NCBI RefSeq assembly: GCF_054482595.1
Contig: NZ_CM137008.1
Reading direction: 5' to 3' (one strand)
DNA: 64,000 bases
The notes beneath the pieces were generated by a model. That model worked only from the letters and a program-made list of their open reading frames with translations, was not told the origin of the DNA and did no database searches. Of the stretch, positions 45,462 to 50,642 are shown piece by piece (positions within the stretch are counted from its first letter, which is position 1; every line of letters begins with the position of its first letter). Both the position numbers and the translations under genes were made by a program.

Positions 45462-45480
45462 GGCGTGGCGGGGAGAGCAT
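45462..45480. other. cos-like site (P2/P4 cohesive-end-like 19-mer)
   Basis: GGCGTGGCGGGGAGAGCAT matches the recalled P2/P4 cos GGCGAGGCGGGGAAAGCAC at 16 of 19 positions. Confidence 0.45.
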
Positions 45481-45690
45481 TGCGCGCGGAGTGGGTGTTT
45501 TATTTTTTGTATGTCACATAAACTTAAGGTATGCAGTACGTAGCTAGTTTCACTAATACTGGGACGAAAAGAATGGTGCGTTTGTAAAAATGTATTTTAA
45601 TTTTTGGATTGTGATACAGAGTAAATTTCATTTAATTTTGTATTTTAATTGCGGTAAGCTATAACAAACTTGAAAAGGAATTATAATCAC

Positions 45691-47352
45691 ATGAGGTATG
45701 TTGAAAATATGAAAATTCTAGTAACTGCACCTTCAAGAAAAAATCACCCAAAAAATAATGTATTGTATGATTTTATATTGCAACAAGATGATTGGAATGA
45801 TTTTAGTTTTATCACTAAGTATCATTTATACATTACAACGAAACTTACTGGTCTTGATGAAATAGAGTATGCTGGGGTTGTTAAAATTATAAAAAAAGAT
45901 CAGTCTGAAGCTGATTACTACATGGTTGAAGAAGGCGAGTTTTCATATTTGAGTGACGAGTTTTGTTCTGTGGGACAATCTCTTGATTATTATGGGAGGC
46001 TCTCTGAATTGGGGAGTGAAATTTGTGAGGGGATATTGACATCATTACGCGACATTAATATGTTTGATTATGTTTCTGAGGGTTTCAAAAATGAAAGAGC
46101 TTGGGAACGTTCTATCATGAGAGACTTAAATAATGATGATGATATTTTTATTCTTCCAAAGTTTATAATAAAAAATCAGTTCTCGGCTATACCTAGTATA
46201 GACATGAAGTTTTCATTTATGTATTCAGGAATGATTAATACTCTTTCGTTTGATTTCGATTCAATACAATATGGATATTTTGAAAGTGAAAAACTACCAT
46301 GTAGAATGTCCGTAATTGTAGGCCGGAACGGTTGTGGGAAGAGTACAACATTGGCAAGACTTTCTAGGGTTGCTTATTCTTCAACTCAGGACAGAAAAAA
46401 AGAACAGATAGCCAAAATTGGTGAAATTCTTCCAGAGGGATTAGGTTTTCCGAAAATAATCAACCTTTCATACAGTGCTTTTGATAGTTTTCAAATACCC
46501 GGGTGTACTTTTAAAGAAAAGAAACAGCTAAGGCAAGACATACTTGATGGGAAAGGTAGGTATATATATTGCGGAGTCAGGGATGTTGGTGCTGAATTGG
46601 ATTATGTATTGGCTAATGTAGATGAAAACAATATGGATATAGAGTTTATTACATTAGATAGGCAAGAGAGAACCATATTAAAACCTCTTGAAGTACTTAG
46701 TGAAGAGTTTTATGGTGTCTTGATAAAAATACATAAAGATAGTGATAAGTGGAATTTGTTTAATAAAGTGATGATGAAGTTGAGAGAAGAGGTTTCATTA
46801 TCTGAAATTATTGATGAAATCTTTAAAGATGATTTTATTCTTAAATCTAAAGAATATTTTCATAGGTTGAGTACAGGGCATAAATTTGTTTTGCATTCGA
46901 TGGCGCATATTTTGTTGTATATTGAAAAAAGATGCCTTGTTTTATTTGATGAGCCTGAAACTCATTTGCACCCGCCATTGCTTGCGGTTTTAATGAGCGC
47001 TCTGAGAATTGTTTTGAACGAAGTCGATGCTTTTGCTATTGTTGCTACTCATTCACCTGTGGTAGTACAAGAAACATTAAGTAAAAATGTTAATGTTATA
47101 ACTAGAAATGGGGAGTTTACTGATTTTCAACGACCTGAAATTGAAACTTTTGGTGAGAATATTGGAGCAATAACATCATCAGTATTTTCATTAACGACTC
47201 AAATAACTGATTATCATGATGAATTAGACAAGCTAATAATAGAATATAAAAATAATAATAATCCATTAGATGACATTGAAAAATGTTTTGATACAGGTCT
47301 TAGTACACAAGCAAGGTCTTATGTAATATCTAAATTAGCGGTAAAAGGATAA
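45691..47352 (+). CDS. ABC-type (AAA15/AAA21, OLD-family-like) ATPase with about 200-aa N-terminal domain of unknown function
   Basis: Walker A GRNGCGKST, signature-like LSTGHK, Walker B LVLFDEPETHLHP, H-loop ATHSP; SD AAGGA 11 nt upstream of ATG. Confidence 0.8.
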   Translation: MRYVENMKILVTAPSRKNHPKNNVLYDFILQQDDWNDFSFITKYHLYITTKLTGLDEIEYAGVVKIIKKDQSEADYYMVEEGEFSYLSDEFCSVGQSLDYYGRLSELGSEICEGILTSLRDINMFDYVSEGFKNERAWERSIMRDLNNDDDIFILPKFIIKNQFSAIPSIDMKFSFMYSGMINTLSFDFDSIQYGYFESEKLPCRMSVIVGRNGCGKSTTLARLSRVAYSSTQDRKKEQIAKIGEILPEGLGFPKIINLSYSAFDSFQIPGCTFKEKKQLRQDILDGKGRYIYCGVRDVGAELDYVLANVDENNMDIEFITLDRQERTILKPLEVLSEEFYGVLIKIHKDSDKWNLFNKVMMKLREEVSLSEIIDEIFKDDFILKSKEYFHRLSTGHKFVLHSMAHILLYIEKRCLVLFDEPETHLHPPLLAVLMSALRIVLNEVDAFAIVATHSPVVVQETLSKNVNVITRNGEFTDFQRPEIETFGENIGAITSSVFSLTTQITDYHDELDKLIIEYKNNNNPLDDIEKCFDTGLSTQARSYVISKLAVKG

Positions 47353-47357
47353 TACAT

Positions 47358-48203
47358 ATGTGGACACTACCTTTACCAGATGATGCGGATAGAATGAGCG
47401 AGTTATTAACCGCTTTAACGTATAAAAATGGAAATCCTAAGTATGCTTTAACACAAGATGAAAAGGATAAAATTGAAACTATTTATACTTTATATCACGA
47501 TCGTAAAGCAACTCCCTGTGCTGAATTTTTAGCAGAGGAAATAAGTGATGAAACCCAAAATGCTATAAAAACAGCTTATTCAGAAGTGCAAATAAATGGA
47601 CGGCTTTCAACCCTTCGCTCAAGGATTTTATTAAGTTCTAAAAAATGCCCATTATGTGGGATCGAATCATCAACCGACCTAGATCATTATCTTCCCGAAT
47701 CAATATATAAATGTCTCGCAGTATATTCAAGAAACCTGATACCGACCTGTCATAAGTGCAATAATAAAAAAAGAGCTGGTGTAGCAGAAAATGGAGTTGG
47801 ATTTATTCATGTGTATTATTTTGATGAGCCCGATGGTGTATTTTTCGTTGCCAATACTGAAATGATAGATGGTGCTTTAGTAATTGATTTTAATATCAAT
47901 ATGATCGAGGGTATGACTCGAGAGGTATATGATTCATTATGCTTTCAAAATAGAGTTGTTAACCTAAATGAAAGGTTAAAGATGGAAGCGAATGATTTTT
48001 TAGGGGGGCTCTATACTTCACTTGAAGAAACATATAATTCTGCAGGCCAAGAAGGATTAAGATTATTTCTAAAAAGAACTAGGGATGACTATACCAGACG
48101 TTATGGGCTTAATCATTGGAGAAGAGCATTGATAGATAGTCTATCCGATAATGTGGAGTTCCTTGACGCTGGTTTTATTACTGCCTTAGGAACTCCAGAG
48201 TGA
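47358..48203 (+). CDS. HNH endonuclease-domain protein (281 aa)
   Basis: CPLCG...DLDHYLPESIY...NLIPTCHKCNNKK HNH/zinc-finger motif; start 5 nt after the ATPase stop. Confidence 0.8.
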   Translation: MWTLPLPDDADRMSELLTALTYKNGNPKYALTQDEKDKIETIYTLYHDRKATPCAEFLAEEISDETQNAIKTAYSEVQINGRLSTLRSRILLSSKKCPLCGIESSTDLDHYLPESIYKCLAVYSRNLIPTCHKCNNKKRAGVAENGVGFIHVYYFDEPDGVFFVANTEMIDGALVIDFNINMIEGMTREVYDSLCFQNRVVNLNERLKMEANDFLGGLYTSLEETYNSAGQEGLRLFLKRTRDDYTRRYGLNHWRRALIDSLSDNVEFLDAGFITALGTPE

Positions 48204-48205
48204 GT

Positions 48206-49399
48206 TTACTGGTGGGGATGAATATGTCGTCCCCACCAATTCATCAATTCAATTCTTGCGTGTAAATATGTTGAGCGATTGTAGGCTTTTCGTACTTCAT
48301 TTCTATCTGAATGAGCAAGAGCAGCCTCAATTACATCAGCATTAAAACCGGCTTCATTCATTGCCGTACTTGCAATCGAACGTAAACCATGTGCAACCAA
48401 TTTCCCACCATAACCTATTCGCTTAAGTGCAGCATTGGCAGTTTGGCTATTCATAGGTTGTTTTGGATTATTTCTGCTGGGAAAAACATGTTCTCGATGT
48501 GCACTAATAGGTTTCATCACATCCAGAATTTCTAATGCTTGTGGTGATAAAGGAACAATGTGTTCACGCTTAGCCTTCATTCGTTCGGCGGGAATCGTCC
48601 AGAGTTTGGCATTGAGATCGATCTCTACCCACCGAGCACCAGAAGCCTCAGAAGGGCGCACTAGGGTCAGAAGCTGCCATTCAATAAGACAGCGAGTCGG
48701 AACAGACAGATTCGACATGACCAGGGAACGCATAAGCTTAGGTAATTCTTCTGGCCGTAGCGTGGGCATATTTTGCTTTTTGGGTTTCTCAAAAGCCATT
48801 CCTACACCCGAAGCCGGGTTGGCATCTATCAGACCGGTATTAACCGCATAAATCATTATTTCGTTAATACGCTGAACTAGGCGACGAACCGTCTCTAATG
48901 CGCCACGTGCTTTGATTGGCTCCAATGCTTCAACAATCGTTCTGGCCTTTATATCCTGAACGGGCATCGCACCGATTGCCGGGAACACGTCTTTATCCAA
49001 AGAACGCCAAATATCCTTTGCATAATCCTCTGTGACACTTCTGCTTTTAATCTGGAACCAGTTAGCGGCCACAGTTGAGAAAATGCTGTCTAACTCAATC
49101 TGGCGTTGTGCTGACGCTTGCTCCTGTTGCTGTTGTGGATCCATGCCTTGCGCGAGCGTGGTTAAGTGCTGGTCGCGTATCTGACGAGCTGCTGCGAGTG
49201 TAAGGGCAGGGTATGAGCCGAGACTCAAATTTGTGCGGCTGCTGCTTCCCGGTCGTTGATAACGGAAGCGTCAGAGTTTTTTACCGGAGGTTTTGACGAG
49301 TAAGAACAGGCCATCACCATCATGCAGGGTGAAGTCTTTTTCGCGGGGTTTCGCTTTGAGGATTTCGTTGTTAGTGAGGGGGCGTGTAATGCGCGCCAT
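48206..49399 (-). pseudogene. intA: P4-type tyrosine integrase with in-frame TGA at codon 43
   Basis: N-terminus MARITRPLTNNEILKAKPREKDFTLHDGDGLFLLVKTSGKKL then TGA then RFRYQRPGSSSRTNLSLGSYPALT... in the same frame; stop sits where related integrases have Trp (TGG). Confidence 0.75.
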
Positions 49400-49449
49400 G
49401 TCTGGATCCCTTCCATAATTGGTACACGTTTAATGGACCACAGTATAGC

Positions 49450-49582: not shown

Positions 49583-49945
49583 TGGTGGAGCTGGCGGGAG
49601 TTGAACCCGCGTCCGAAATTCCTACGTCCTCGGTACTACATGCTTAGTCAGTCTTTACATTCGCTTGCCAGCTGCGGACGGACACGCCACTAACAAACTA
49701 GCCTGATTAAGTTTTAACGCTTCAACCCCAGGCAGGGCCTCCACGCGATCTCTTTTGGGTTTGACCTCTCTTGATCCCCGTCCTAAGAGCGGAGGCTAGG
49801 GAGAGAGGGCTCTAAGCAGGTTATTAAGCTGCTAAAGCGTAGTTTTCGTCGTTTGCGACTATTTTTTGCGGCTTTTTACGAGGCCAACCGCCCCTCGGCA
49901 TGCACCTTGGGTTTCGCAAATCCCGTCGAATCCAGAATCAGCCCC
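49583..49945 (-). ncRNA. ssrA: tmRNA (SsrA), 363 nt
   Basis: reverse complement begins GGGGCTGATTCTGGATTCGACGGG and ends ...GCGGGTTCAACTCCCGCCAGCTCCACCA. Confidence 0.97.
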
Positions 49946-50159: not shown

Positions 50160-50642
50160 TTAACGGTGAGCGTTTTTCATGATACGCGCTTTATCCACCT
50201 GCCATTCGCGTTCTTTGATATCTGAACGTTTATCGTGCTGTTTCTTACCTTTGGCGACGCCGATTTTCACTTTGCACCAGGCATTTTTCCAGTACAGGGA
50301 GAGCGCCACTACGGTATAGCCTTCTCGATTGACGCGACCGTACAATGAGTCCAGTTCGCGCTGGTTGAGAAGTAACTTGCGGGTACGGGTAGGATCGCAC
50401 ACCACATGCGTGGAGGCCACGGCCATTGGCGTGATGTTAGCGCCAAACAGAAATGCCTCTCCGTCACGCAGAAGGACGTAGCTGTCGCTGATATTGGCTT
50501 TTCCTGCGCGCAGGGATTTAACCTCCCAGCCTTGCAGGGCAAGTCCCGCTTCGAACTCTTCTTCGATAAAGTATTCGTGACGGGCGCGCTTGTTAAGCGC
50601 GATGGTCGCTGAACCAGGTTTATGTGCTTTTTTCTTCGTCAT
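50160..50642 (-). CDS. smpB: SsrA-binding protein SmpB
   Basis: 160-aa ORF adjacent to ssrA. Confidence 0.95.

Follow-up and report, generated by a model that had tools for sequence, protein, structure and literature searches.

Two adjacent genes lie between the remains of a psu gene and a P4-type integrase gene in the Escherichia coli chromosome studied here, which raises the question of whether they form an anti-phage system and, if so, of which kind. An initial annotation of the 64,000-nt stretch of DNA that was analysed (the window) had read them as an ABC ATPase and an HNH nuclease following the logic of Septu (PtuA/PtuB), possibly as a divergent or undescribed variant. Our analysis indicates that the cassette is probably a two-gene anti-phage system of the Septu kind, and that a decayed P4-type satellite at ssrA carries it as cargo in its psu-int hotspot. 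A role in defence is well supported by inference. The features observed directly are the gene organisation, the conserved catalytic motifs, the similarity of the predicted folds to PtuA and PtuB, the conservation of the two genes as a pair and their defence-island context.

Organisation of the two-gene cassette

Gene 1 (45691 to 47352, plus strand) encodes a PtuA-like ABC ATPase of 553 amino acids (PADLOC PDC-M01A), and gene 2 (47358 to 48203, plus strand) encodes a PtuB-like HNH nuclease of 281 amino acids (PADLOC PDC-M01B). The ORF list and our own translation agreed with the annotated arrangement of two co-oriented genes with a 5-nt gap, and all of the ATPase and HNH motifs quoted in the annotation were found at their places in the translated sequences. 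At the junction of the two genes (47344 to 47360, plus strand), AAAGGA is followed by the stop codon TAA, 5 nt (tacat) and the ATG of gene 2. This junction, with AAAGGA just 5' of the ATG, suggests that translation of the two genes is coupled. Because the homologues all begin with MKILV, translation of gene 1 probably begins at the ATG at 45709. A TTG is present upstream of gene 1 at 45670.

The GC content of the cassette is 0.33, compared with 0.545 for psu and 0.485 for the whole window. Both reading frames are intact. The stretch upstream of gene 1 (45500-45690) is AT-rich, and a scan for promoters and terminators returned nothing above chance.

The cassette is the sole intact unit of a decayed P4-type satellite

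On its left side, the hotspot is bordered by a psu pseudogene (44723 to 45289, plus strand), labelled 'phage polarity suppression protein, internal stop' in RefSeq. PHROG 6366 matched both halves of this gene (2e-40 and 6e-36; profile positions 1-91 and 106-188 of 190). A single cos-like 19-mer (45462 to 45480, plus strand) matched the P2/P4 cos sequence GGCGAGGCGGGGAAAGCAC with 3 mismatches, compared with a mean of 0.01 matches in shuffled sequence. The right border is a P4/CP4-57-type integrase pseudogene (48206 to 49416, minus strand; NF007246, 6.6e-149), also with an internal stop in RefSeq. It is convergent with gene 2 at a distance of 2 nt and adjoins ssrA, the tmRNA gene (49583-49945); smpB is located at 50160-50642. 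Additionally, only the C-terminal 191 amino acids of a P4 alpha primase were found (43990 to 44565, minus strand; TIGR01613 primase_Cterm, 2.4e-9), and RefSeq likewise records this remnant without its N-terminus.

Since psu, int and the alpha primase gene are all pseudogenes or truncated, the satellite is decayed: the P4-type element is a remnant in the E. coli chromosome, at ssrA, and the cassette is its sole intact P4-associated unit. The annotated psu-int position in a P4-like satellite was borne out by PHROG 6366, the cos-like site and NF007246, with the cargo lying between psu/cos and a P4-type integrase, but the satellite itself is not intact: it is a wreck in which both border genes are pseudogenes. 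The psu-int locus was defined as a defence hotspot of P4 satellites, with experimental support, by Rousset et al. (2022; PMC9122126), and Septu is among the known systems of the hotspot in the main text of that paper.

With every flanking P4 gene a pseudogene and no promoter above chance, the cassette might itself have fallen silent in this strain, as a relic that has lost its expression or its function. Its 2.75-kb stretch was recovered from 15 of 5426 complete E. coli genomes, at an identity of at least 99.9%. One of these carriers, APEC37, has the HNH gene annotated as two hypothetical proteins, as a relic might, whereas both genes are annotated as whole in the other 14. Strain Santai has the same neighbourhood as the window, including the position of ssrA immediately beside the integrase gene. 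The near-identity of the DNA among the 15 genomes, the intact frames, the retention of all catalytic residues and the upstream AT-rich stretch, which is typical of a promoter region, argue against a relic, and we regard this explanation as quite improbable.

The initial annotation had also stated that neither a reverse transcriptase nor a retron-like ncRNA was adjacent. In agreement with this, the ORF list contained no reverse transcriptase ORF between 42000 and 49500, and Rfam gave no RNA-family match at its gathering thresholds between 34700 and 49500.

Gene 1 encodes a PtuA-like ABC ATPase

The product of gene 1 comprises an N-terminal domain (residues 1 to ~165), an ABC head from residue ~170, a helical insert (~297-392) and a C-terminal helical extension (~490-550). 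Its ATPase motifs are a Walker A (GRNGCGKST, 211-219), a signature (LSTGHK, 393-398), a Walker B (LVLFDEPETHLHP, 416-428) and an H-loop (ATHSP, 452-456), with K217 in Walker A, D420 and E421 in Walker B and H454 in the H-loop as the key residues. In an alignment of 46 ATPase homologues, the residues of the Walker A and B motifs, the signature and the H-loop were invariant.

In PADLOC-DB, PDC-M01A matched gene 1 at full length (1.3e-99; residues 7-546 on profile positions 1-474 of 482). The PtuA1 model PDLC00282 also matched the full-length ATPase, including the N-terminal domain (1.2e-73; residues 19-544 on profile positions 11-507 of 520), and by this profile gene 1 is recognised as a Septu PtuA; the other PADLOC PtuA models matched the C-terminal lobe only. 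Pfam gave weak AAA_21 and AAA_15 matches, again confined to the C-terminal lobe, and a sequence search of the PDB returned only weak C-terminal matches to retron PtuA. No NCBIfam family reached its cut-off on the cassette proteins; the PtuA equivalog, which is specific to retron Ec78, scored 40 bits on gene 1 against a cut-off of 500.

An AlphaFold2 (AF2) model of the ATPase, built from the homologue alignment, had a pLDDT of 88. In a Foldseek search of the PDB, the first 48 matches were all PtuA chains (E-values from 3e-10 to about 3e-5), belonging to the retron Ec78, Eco7 and Ec83 complexes and to E. coli Septu (8EEA, 8EE4 and 8SUX). The best matches were retron and Septu PtuA, with E-values of 3e-10 to 1e-7. 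The TM-scores were low (0.23-0.46), which is expected because this is a multi-domain protein with an extra domain.

Gene 2 encodes a PtuB-like HNH nuclease

The HNH motifs of gene 2 are CPLCG (97-101), DH (109-110) and CHKCNNKK (131-138). C97, C100, C131 and C134 form a CxxC...CxxC zinc finger, H110, N126 and N135 are the catalytic residues, and a helical C-terminal domain spans ~188-276. The HNH and zinc residues were invariant in an alignment of 44 HNH homologues.

PDC-M01B matched gene 2 at full length in PADLOC-DB (2.6e-37; residues 20-273 on profile positions 19-276 of 281), whereas the match of the PADLOC PtuB1 model PDLC00336 was partial (1.8e-8; residues 61-141 on profile positions 36-114 of 250). 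Pfam HNH matches were below threshold, and a PDB sequence search gave no match. The AF2 model, likewise built from the alignment of homologues, had a pLDDT of 93.5. Its best structural match in Foldseek was PtuB, and the similarity reached well past the HNH core. No TOPRIM match to gene 2 was found in the PADLOC, Pfam and fold searches.

Comparison with Septu and other defence systems

Three sets of Septu references were used for comparison: the stand-alone E. coli structures (PDB 8EE4, 8EE7 and 8EEA), the tested system EcB88 and the canonical P4-hotspot system 26 of Rousset et al. As in Septu, the cassette is a two-gene operon in which an ABC ATPase gene precedes an HNH nuclease gene on the same strand and the catalytic motifs are kept, and the adjacent, co-oriented AAA_15/AAA_21 ATPase and HNH genes agree with the gene-level definition of that system. 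The structural comparison points the same way, as PtuA and PtuB are the closest matches of the two predicted folds, and the location in the P4 psu-int hotspot is shared with system 26. The proposed Septu logic of the ATPase and HNH pair is therefore upheld by gene order, motifs, folds and PDLC00282, and the profile and structure searches suggested for it led to full-length matches of PDC-M01A/B and of a PtuA model, a partial match of a PtuB model, and PtuA and PtuB as the best fold matches.

However, the cassette is remote from characterised Septu, with an identity of only 9-17%. Compared with Septu, the ATPase has ~165 extra N-terminal residues, which place the Walker A lysine at K217 rather than at about K20 (system 26) or K43 (EcB88), so the extra region before Walker A described in the annotation is real. 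Walker A and Walker B lie 203 residues apart, compared with 273 in EcB88. The nuclease is 281 amino acids long rather than about 200-234, with H110 and N126 in place of H75 and N91. With hhalign, the ATPase aligned to that of system 26 over residues 392-529 only (97% probability), with the C-terminal helix reading EYKNN against EYNNKK, and the nuclease aligned to PtuB of system 26 over residues 77-136 only (95% probability; 60 columns).

At the level of sequence family, no difference from the PADLOC candidate PDC-M01 was found: the two genes are adjacent and both proteins match its models best and at full length. The PDC entries of PADLOC, under which this family was filed rather than under Septu, are untested candidates from a preprint by Payne et al. 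(2024), in which a guilt-by-embedding approach was applied and candidates were drawn from genes embedded in R-M, BREX and DISARM loci. One homologue of the cassette is located beside type I R-M genes, as expected of that discovery route.

Several other assignments were considered and rejected. The effectors of type I-A retrons (Ec78/Eco7 and Ec83 PtuAB; 'Septu type II' in PADLOC) differ from the cassette, which is without a reverse transcriptase and an ncRNA; the N-terminal domain is larger here than in retron PtuA, and no relationship between the two was detected. Membership of this group was rejected on the lack of a reverse transcriptase ORF and of an RNA-family match, together with the score of 40 bits against the cut-off of 500. 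PARIS (AriA/AriB), Gabija (GajA/GajB) and OLD share with the cassette an ABC ATPase from the broad AAA_15/AAA_21 group, and PARIS also occurs as P4 hotspot cargo, but their effector is of the TOPRIM/DUF4435 type, whereas the effector here is an HNH protein. The PADLOC AriA, GajA and Old matches were weak and restricted to the C-terminal lobe of the ATPase, and these three systems were excluded on the HNH partner and its lack of a TOPRIM match. TIGR04435, the 'restriction system-associated AAA ATPase', was dismissed as well, with 78 bits against a cut-off of 300 and a match in the C-terminal region only.

Previous catalogue entries of the pair

Table S1B of PMC9122126 lists a system 17 (AAA_15/AAA_21 with HNH_4) at 80 of 5251 loci, annotated as 'Septu (Doron et al., 2018)'. 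Sequence comparison with this table showed that the system 17 proteins, WP_021557103 and WP_021557102, are identical to those of the cassette. The pair therefore has two earlier entries, one as Septu in the P4-hotspot survey and one as PDC-M01 in PADLOC. Consequently, of the annotated 'divergent or undescribed variant', the first half stands, given the distance from characterised Septu, and the second does not, given system 17 of Table S1B and PDC-M01A/B. The sequences of the pair were absent from the accessible parts of the other supplementary files of PMC9122126, including Table S2 of tested systems. A literature search found no paper citing WP_021557103 or WP_021557102 and no report of an experimental test of the PDC-M01 clade.

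Homologues and their genomic contexts

The ATPase family had more than 3000 members in a first search, from Proteobacteria and Bacteroidota, nearly all of them ~550 amino acids long. For at least 17 pairs of ATPase and HNH homologues, the two partners had identical values for the longest contig, as would be expected if both genes share one contig. The gene order and the 5-nt gap were kept in all three loci examined (Carboxylicivirga, Paraburkholderia and Yersinia). Specifically, the Carboxylicivirga pair is directly 3' of the type I R-M gene hsdR, with Kiwa and other genes embedded nearby; the Paraburkholderia pair has a SIR2 gene in its vicinity; and the Yersinia pair adjoins an integrase gene, with AbiEii nearby. 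Moreover, matches to PHROG 8066 and 10378 showed that phage-borne copies of the family exist.

Such copies, a foreign GC content of 0.33 and the survival of the cassette as the only intact unit of a decayed satellite would also fit a function outside phage defence, in which the cassette serves the mobile element as an addiction or maintenance module or acts as its selfish homing nuclease; homing elements often carry HNH nucleases. To our knowledge, however, homing HNH genes are not accompanied by a conserved 550-aa ABC ATPase partner. In addition, the pair is conserved across phyla and recurs among Kiwa, type I R-M, SIR2 and AbiEii genes, and the psu-int locus in which it lies is an experimentally supported defence hotspot (PMC9122126). 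An addiction or homing function is thus very improbable, and defence of the Septu kind is preferred.

The N-terminal domain of the ATPase

In the AF2 model, the N-terminal domain of ~165 residues consists of six strands followed by four helices. An alignment of this domain matched no Pfam family, and its profile gave only chance-level matches among PDB sequences. A search of 1.84 billion cluster representatives (50% identity) recovered the domain in 2123 proteins, corresponding to at least 2100 clusters from several phyla. In all eight representatives checked, it was accompanied by the PDC-M01A ATPase. Some of those checked carry a further extension of ~160 residues, which places the domain internally in front of the same ATPase. 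The domain is essentially confined to one ATPase family, and the notion that it is a modular sensor with a wide distribution was therefore dropped. Judged from these sequences, it is the hallmark of a large clade rather than a shuffled module, that is, a clade-specific domain of mixed beta/alpha structure in PDC-M01.

The distribution of this domain, together with its lack of Pfam and PDB sequence matches, bears on whether the cassette is a defence system functionally distinct from Septu, namely PDC-M01 in its own right, sharing only generic ABC ATPase and HNH modules. In such a system, the N-terminal domain would recognise a particular cue, either from the phage or in nucleic acid, and the nuclease would attack incoming DNA itself in the manner of a restriction enzyme, without abortive infection. 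The best HMM matches, which were PDC-M01A/B and not PtuA/PtuB, are in line with this explanation, and so is the restriction of profile-detectable homology with canonical Septu to the catalytic cores. Against it, the PtuA model PDLC00282 spans the whole ATPase, including the N-terminal domain, and the structure searches gave PtuA and PtuB as the top matches, that of the nuclease extending well beyond the HNH core. The partial TIGR04435 match and the homologue directly after hsdR might hint at a restriction-associated system, but the score is far below the TIGR04435 cut-off and most contexts are without a conserved R-M partner. A distinct system is accordingly considered unlikely, and the cassette is further discussed as a divergent Septu.

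Proposed mechanism

In characterised systems, function requires the Walker A, Walker B and HNH residues, and infection is accompanied by cleavage of tRNA-Tyr (PMC13096335). According to PMC12819146, stand-alone PtuAB is hexamer-based and nicks DNA in vitro; ATP inhibits it, and a phage tail fibre sensitises it. [quoted passage not shown] PMC13001434 regards PtuA as a sensor that responds to ATP depletion.

By analogy with these systems, we infer the assembly, ATP control, trigger, substrate and protective effect of the cassette as follows. The ABC ATPase would oligomerise and hold the HNH nuclease through its C-terminal helices. As long as ATP is plentiful, the nuclease would be restrained, and infection would release it, with a drop in ATP, a phage component or a combination of the two as the signal. 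The N-terminal domain, a candidate sensor or regulatory module, is a plausible sensor of a phage component. The freed nuclease would then cut nucleic acid, which for tested Septu and retron PtuAB takes the form of nicked DNA in vitro and cleaved tRNA-Tyr in vivo, and phage replication would halt at the cost of the growth of the infected cell. An assembly or trigger unlike that of hexameric Septu could result from the N-terminal domain and from the reduced length of the helical insert.

The cassette is a further example of an established rule: the psu-int interval of P4-type satellites harbours defence cargo. Being intact and compact, it also offers an E. coli example of a Septu superfamily branch that is very large and has an uncharacterised N-terminal domain. 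We tentatively suggest, as a possibility that is on balance rather doubtful, that this domain is a new sensor module that gives the PDC-M01 branch a trigger or oligomeric assembly differing from those of hexameric stand-alone Septu and of retron-bound PtuAB. If this were true, the branch would be a mechanistically distinct subtype of Septu and more than a distant member of it.

Decayed P4-type element and a second defence gene

The P4-type element on both sides of the cassette (43990-45289 and 48206-49416) is a remnant. Only the last 191 aa of the P4 alpha primase are left, psu and int each contain an internal stop, and none of the sid, delta, epsilon and cI genes is present in the element in the window. 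It is annotated in the same remnant state in XH990 and Santai, two E. coli strains that carry the cassette.

An intact gene for a modification-dependent restriction endonuclease (42693-43574, minus strand; GC 0.38) is assigned to the AbaSI family by RefSeq, and its product matches the PADLOC model mREase_II over the full length (4e-122). Because this gene lies between the ypjA/ehaD autotransporter gene on one side and the truncated P4 primase on the other, it is a second defence gene of the decayed island that holds the cassette. The large autotransporter gene (37679-42382, plus strand), encoding a YpjA/EhaD adhesin-like protein of 1567 aa from a GTG start, belongs to the ileY-ssrA island and is ordinary at that locus.

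In XH990 (locus L001, 18240-21578), additional DNA was found between the cassette-side integrase and the site matching the window's ssrA, comprising a pair formed by an RloB-family protein and an AAA ATPase, together with a second integrase and a lambdoid prophage. This extra material shows that insertion has happened repeatedly at the ssrA site. The RloB-family protein and its AAA ATPase represent a further candidate defence pair.

Gene models and relatives of the cassette

All aligned homologues of the cassette ATPase begin with MKILV, which corresponds to ATG 45709 in the window, so the true start probably lies 18 nt downstream of the annotated ATG 45691. Some family members possess an additional N-terminal extension of ~160 residues ahead of the clade-specific domain, as in the homologues P0296 (650 aa) and P0298 (674 aa) and the PADLOC model PDLC04240 (639 positions).

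The cassette copy in E. coli APEC37 (NZ_CP127303.1, 35998-38749) is 99.9% identical to the query and one base longer in the record. Its HNH gene is annotated as two hypothetical proteins, which points to a probable frameshift in this strain.

A homologous pair occurs in Carboxylicivirga marina (locus L002, 1-11253) at a type I restriction-modification locus, where Kiwa (KwaA/KwaB), a GmrSD_N protein and an AAA_15 ATPase pair are embedded between hsdS and hsdR. The pair, matching the PADLOC candidate defence family PDC-M01, directly follows hsdR together with a DUF6946 gene, and the region is a dense nested defence island.
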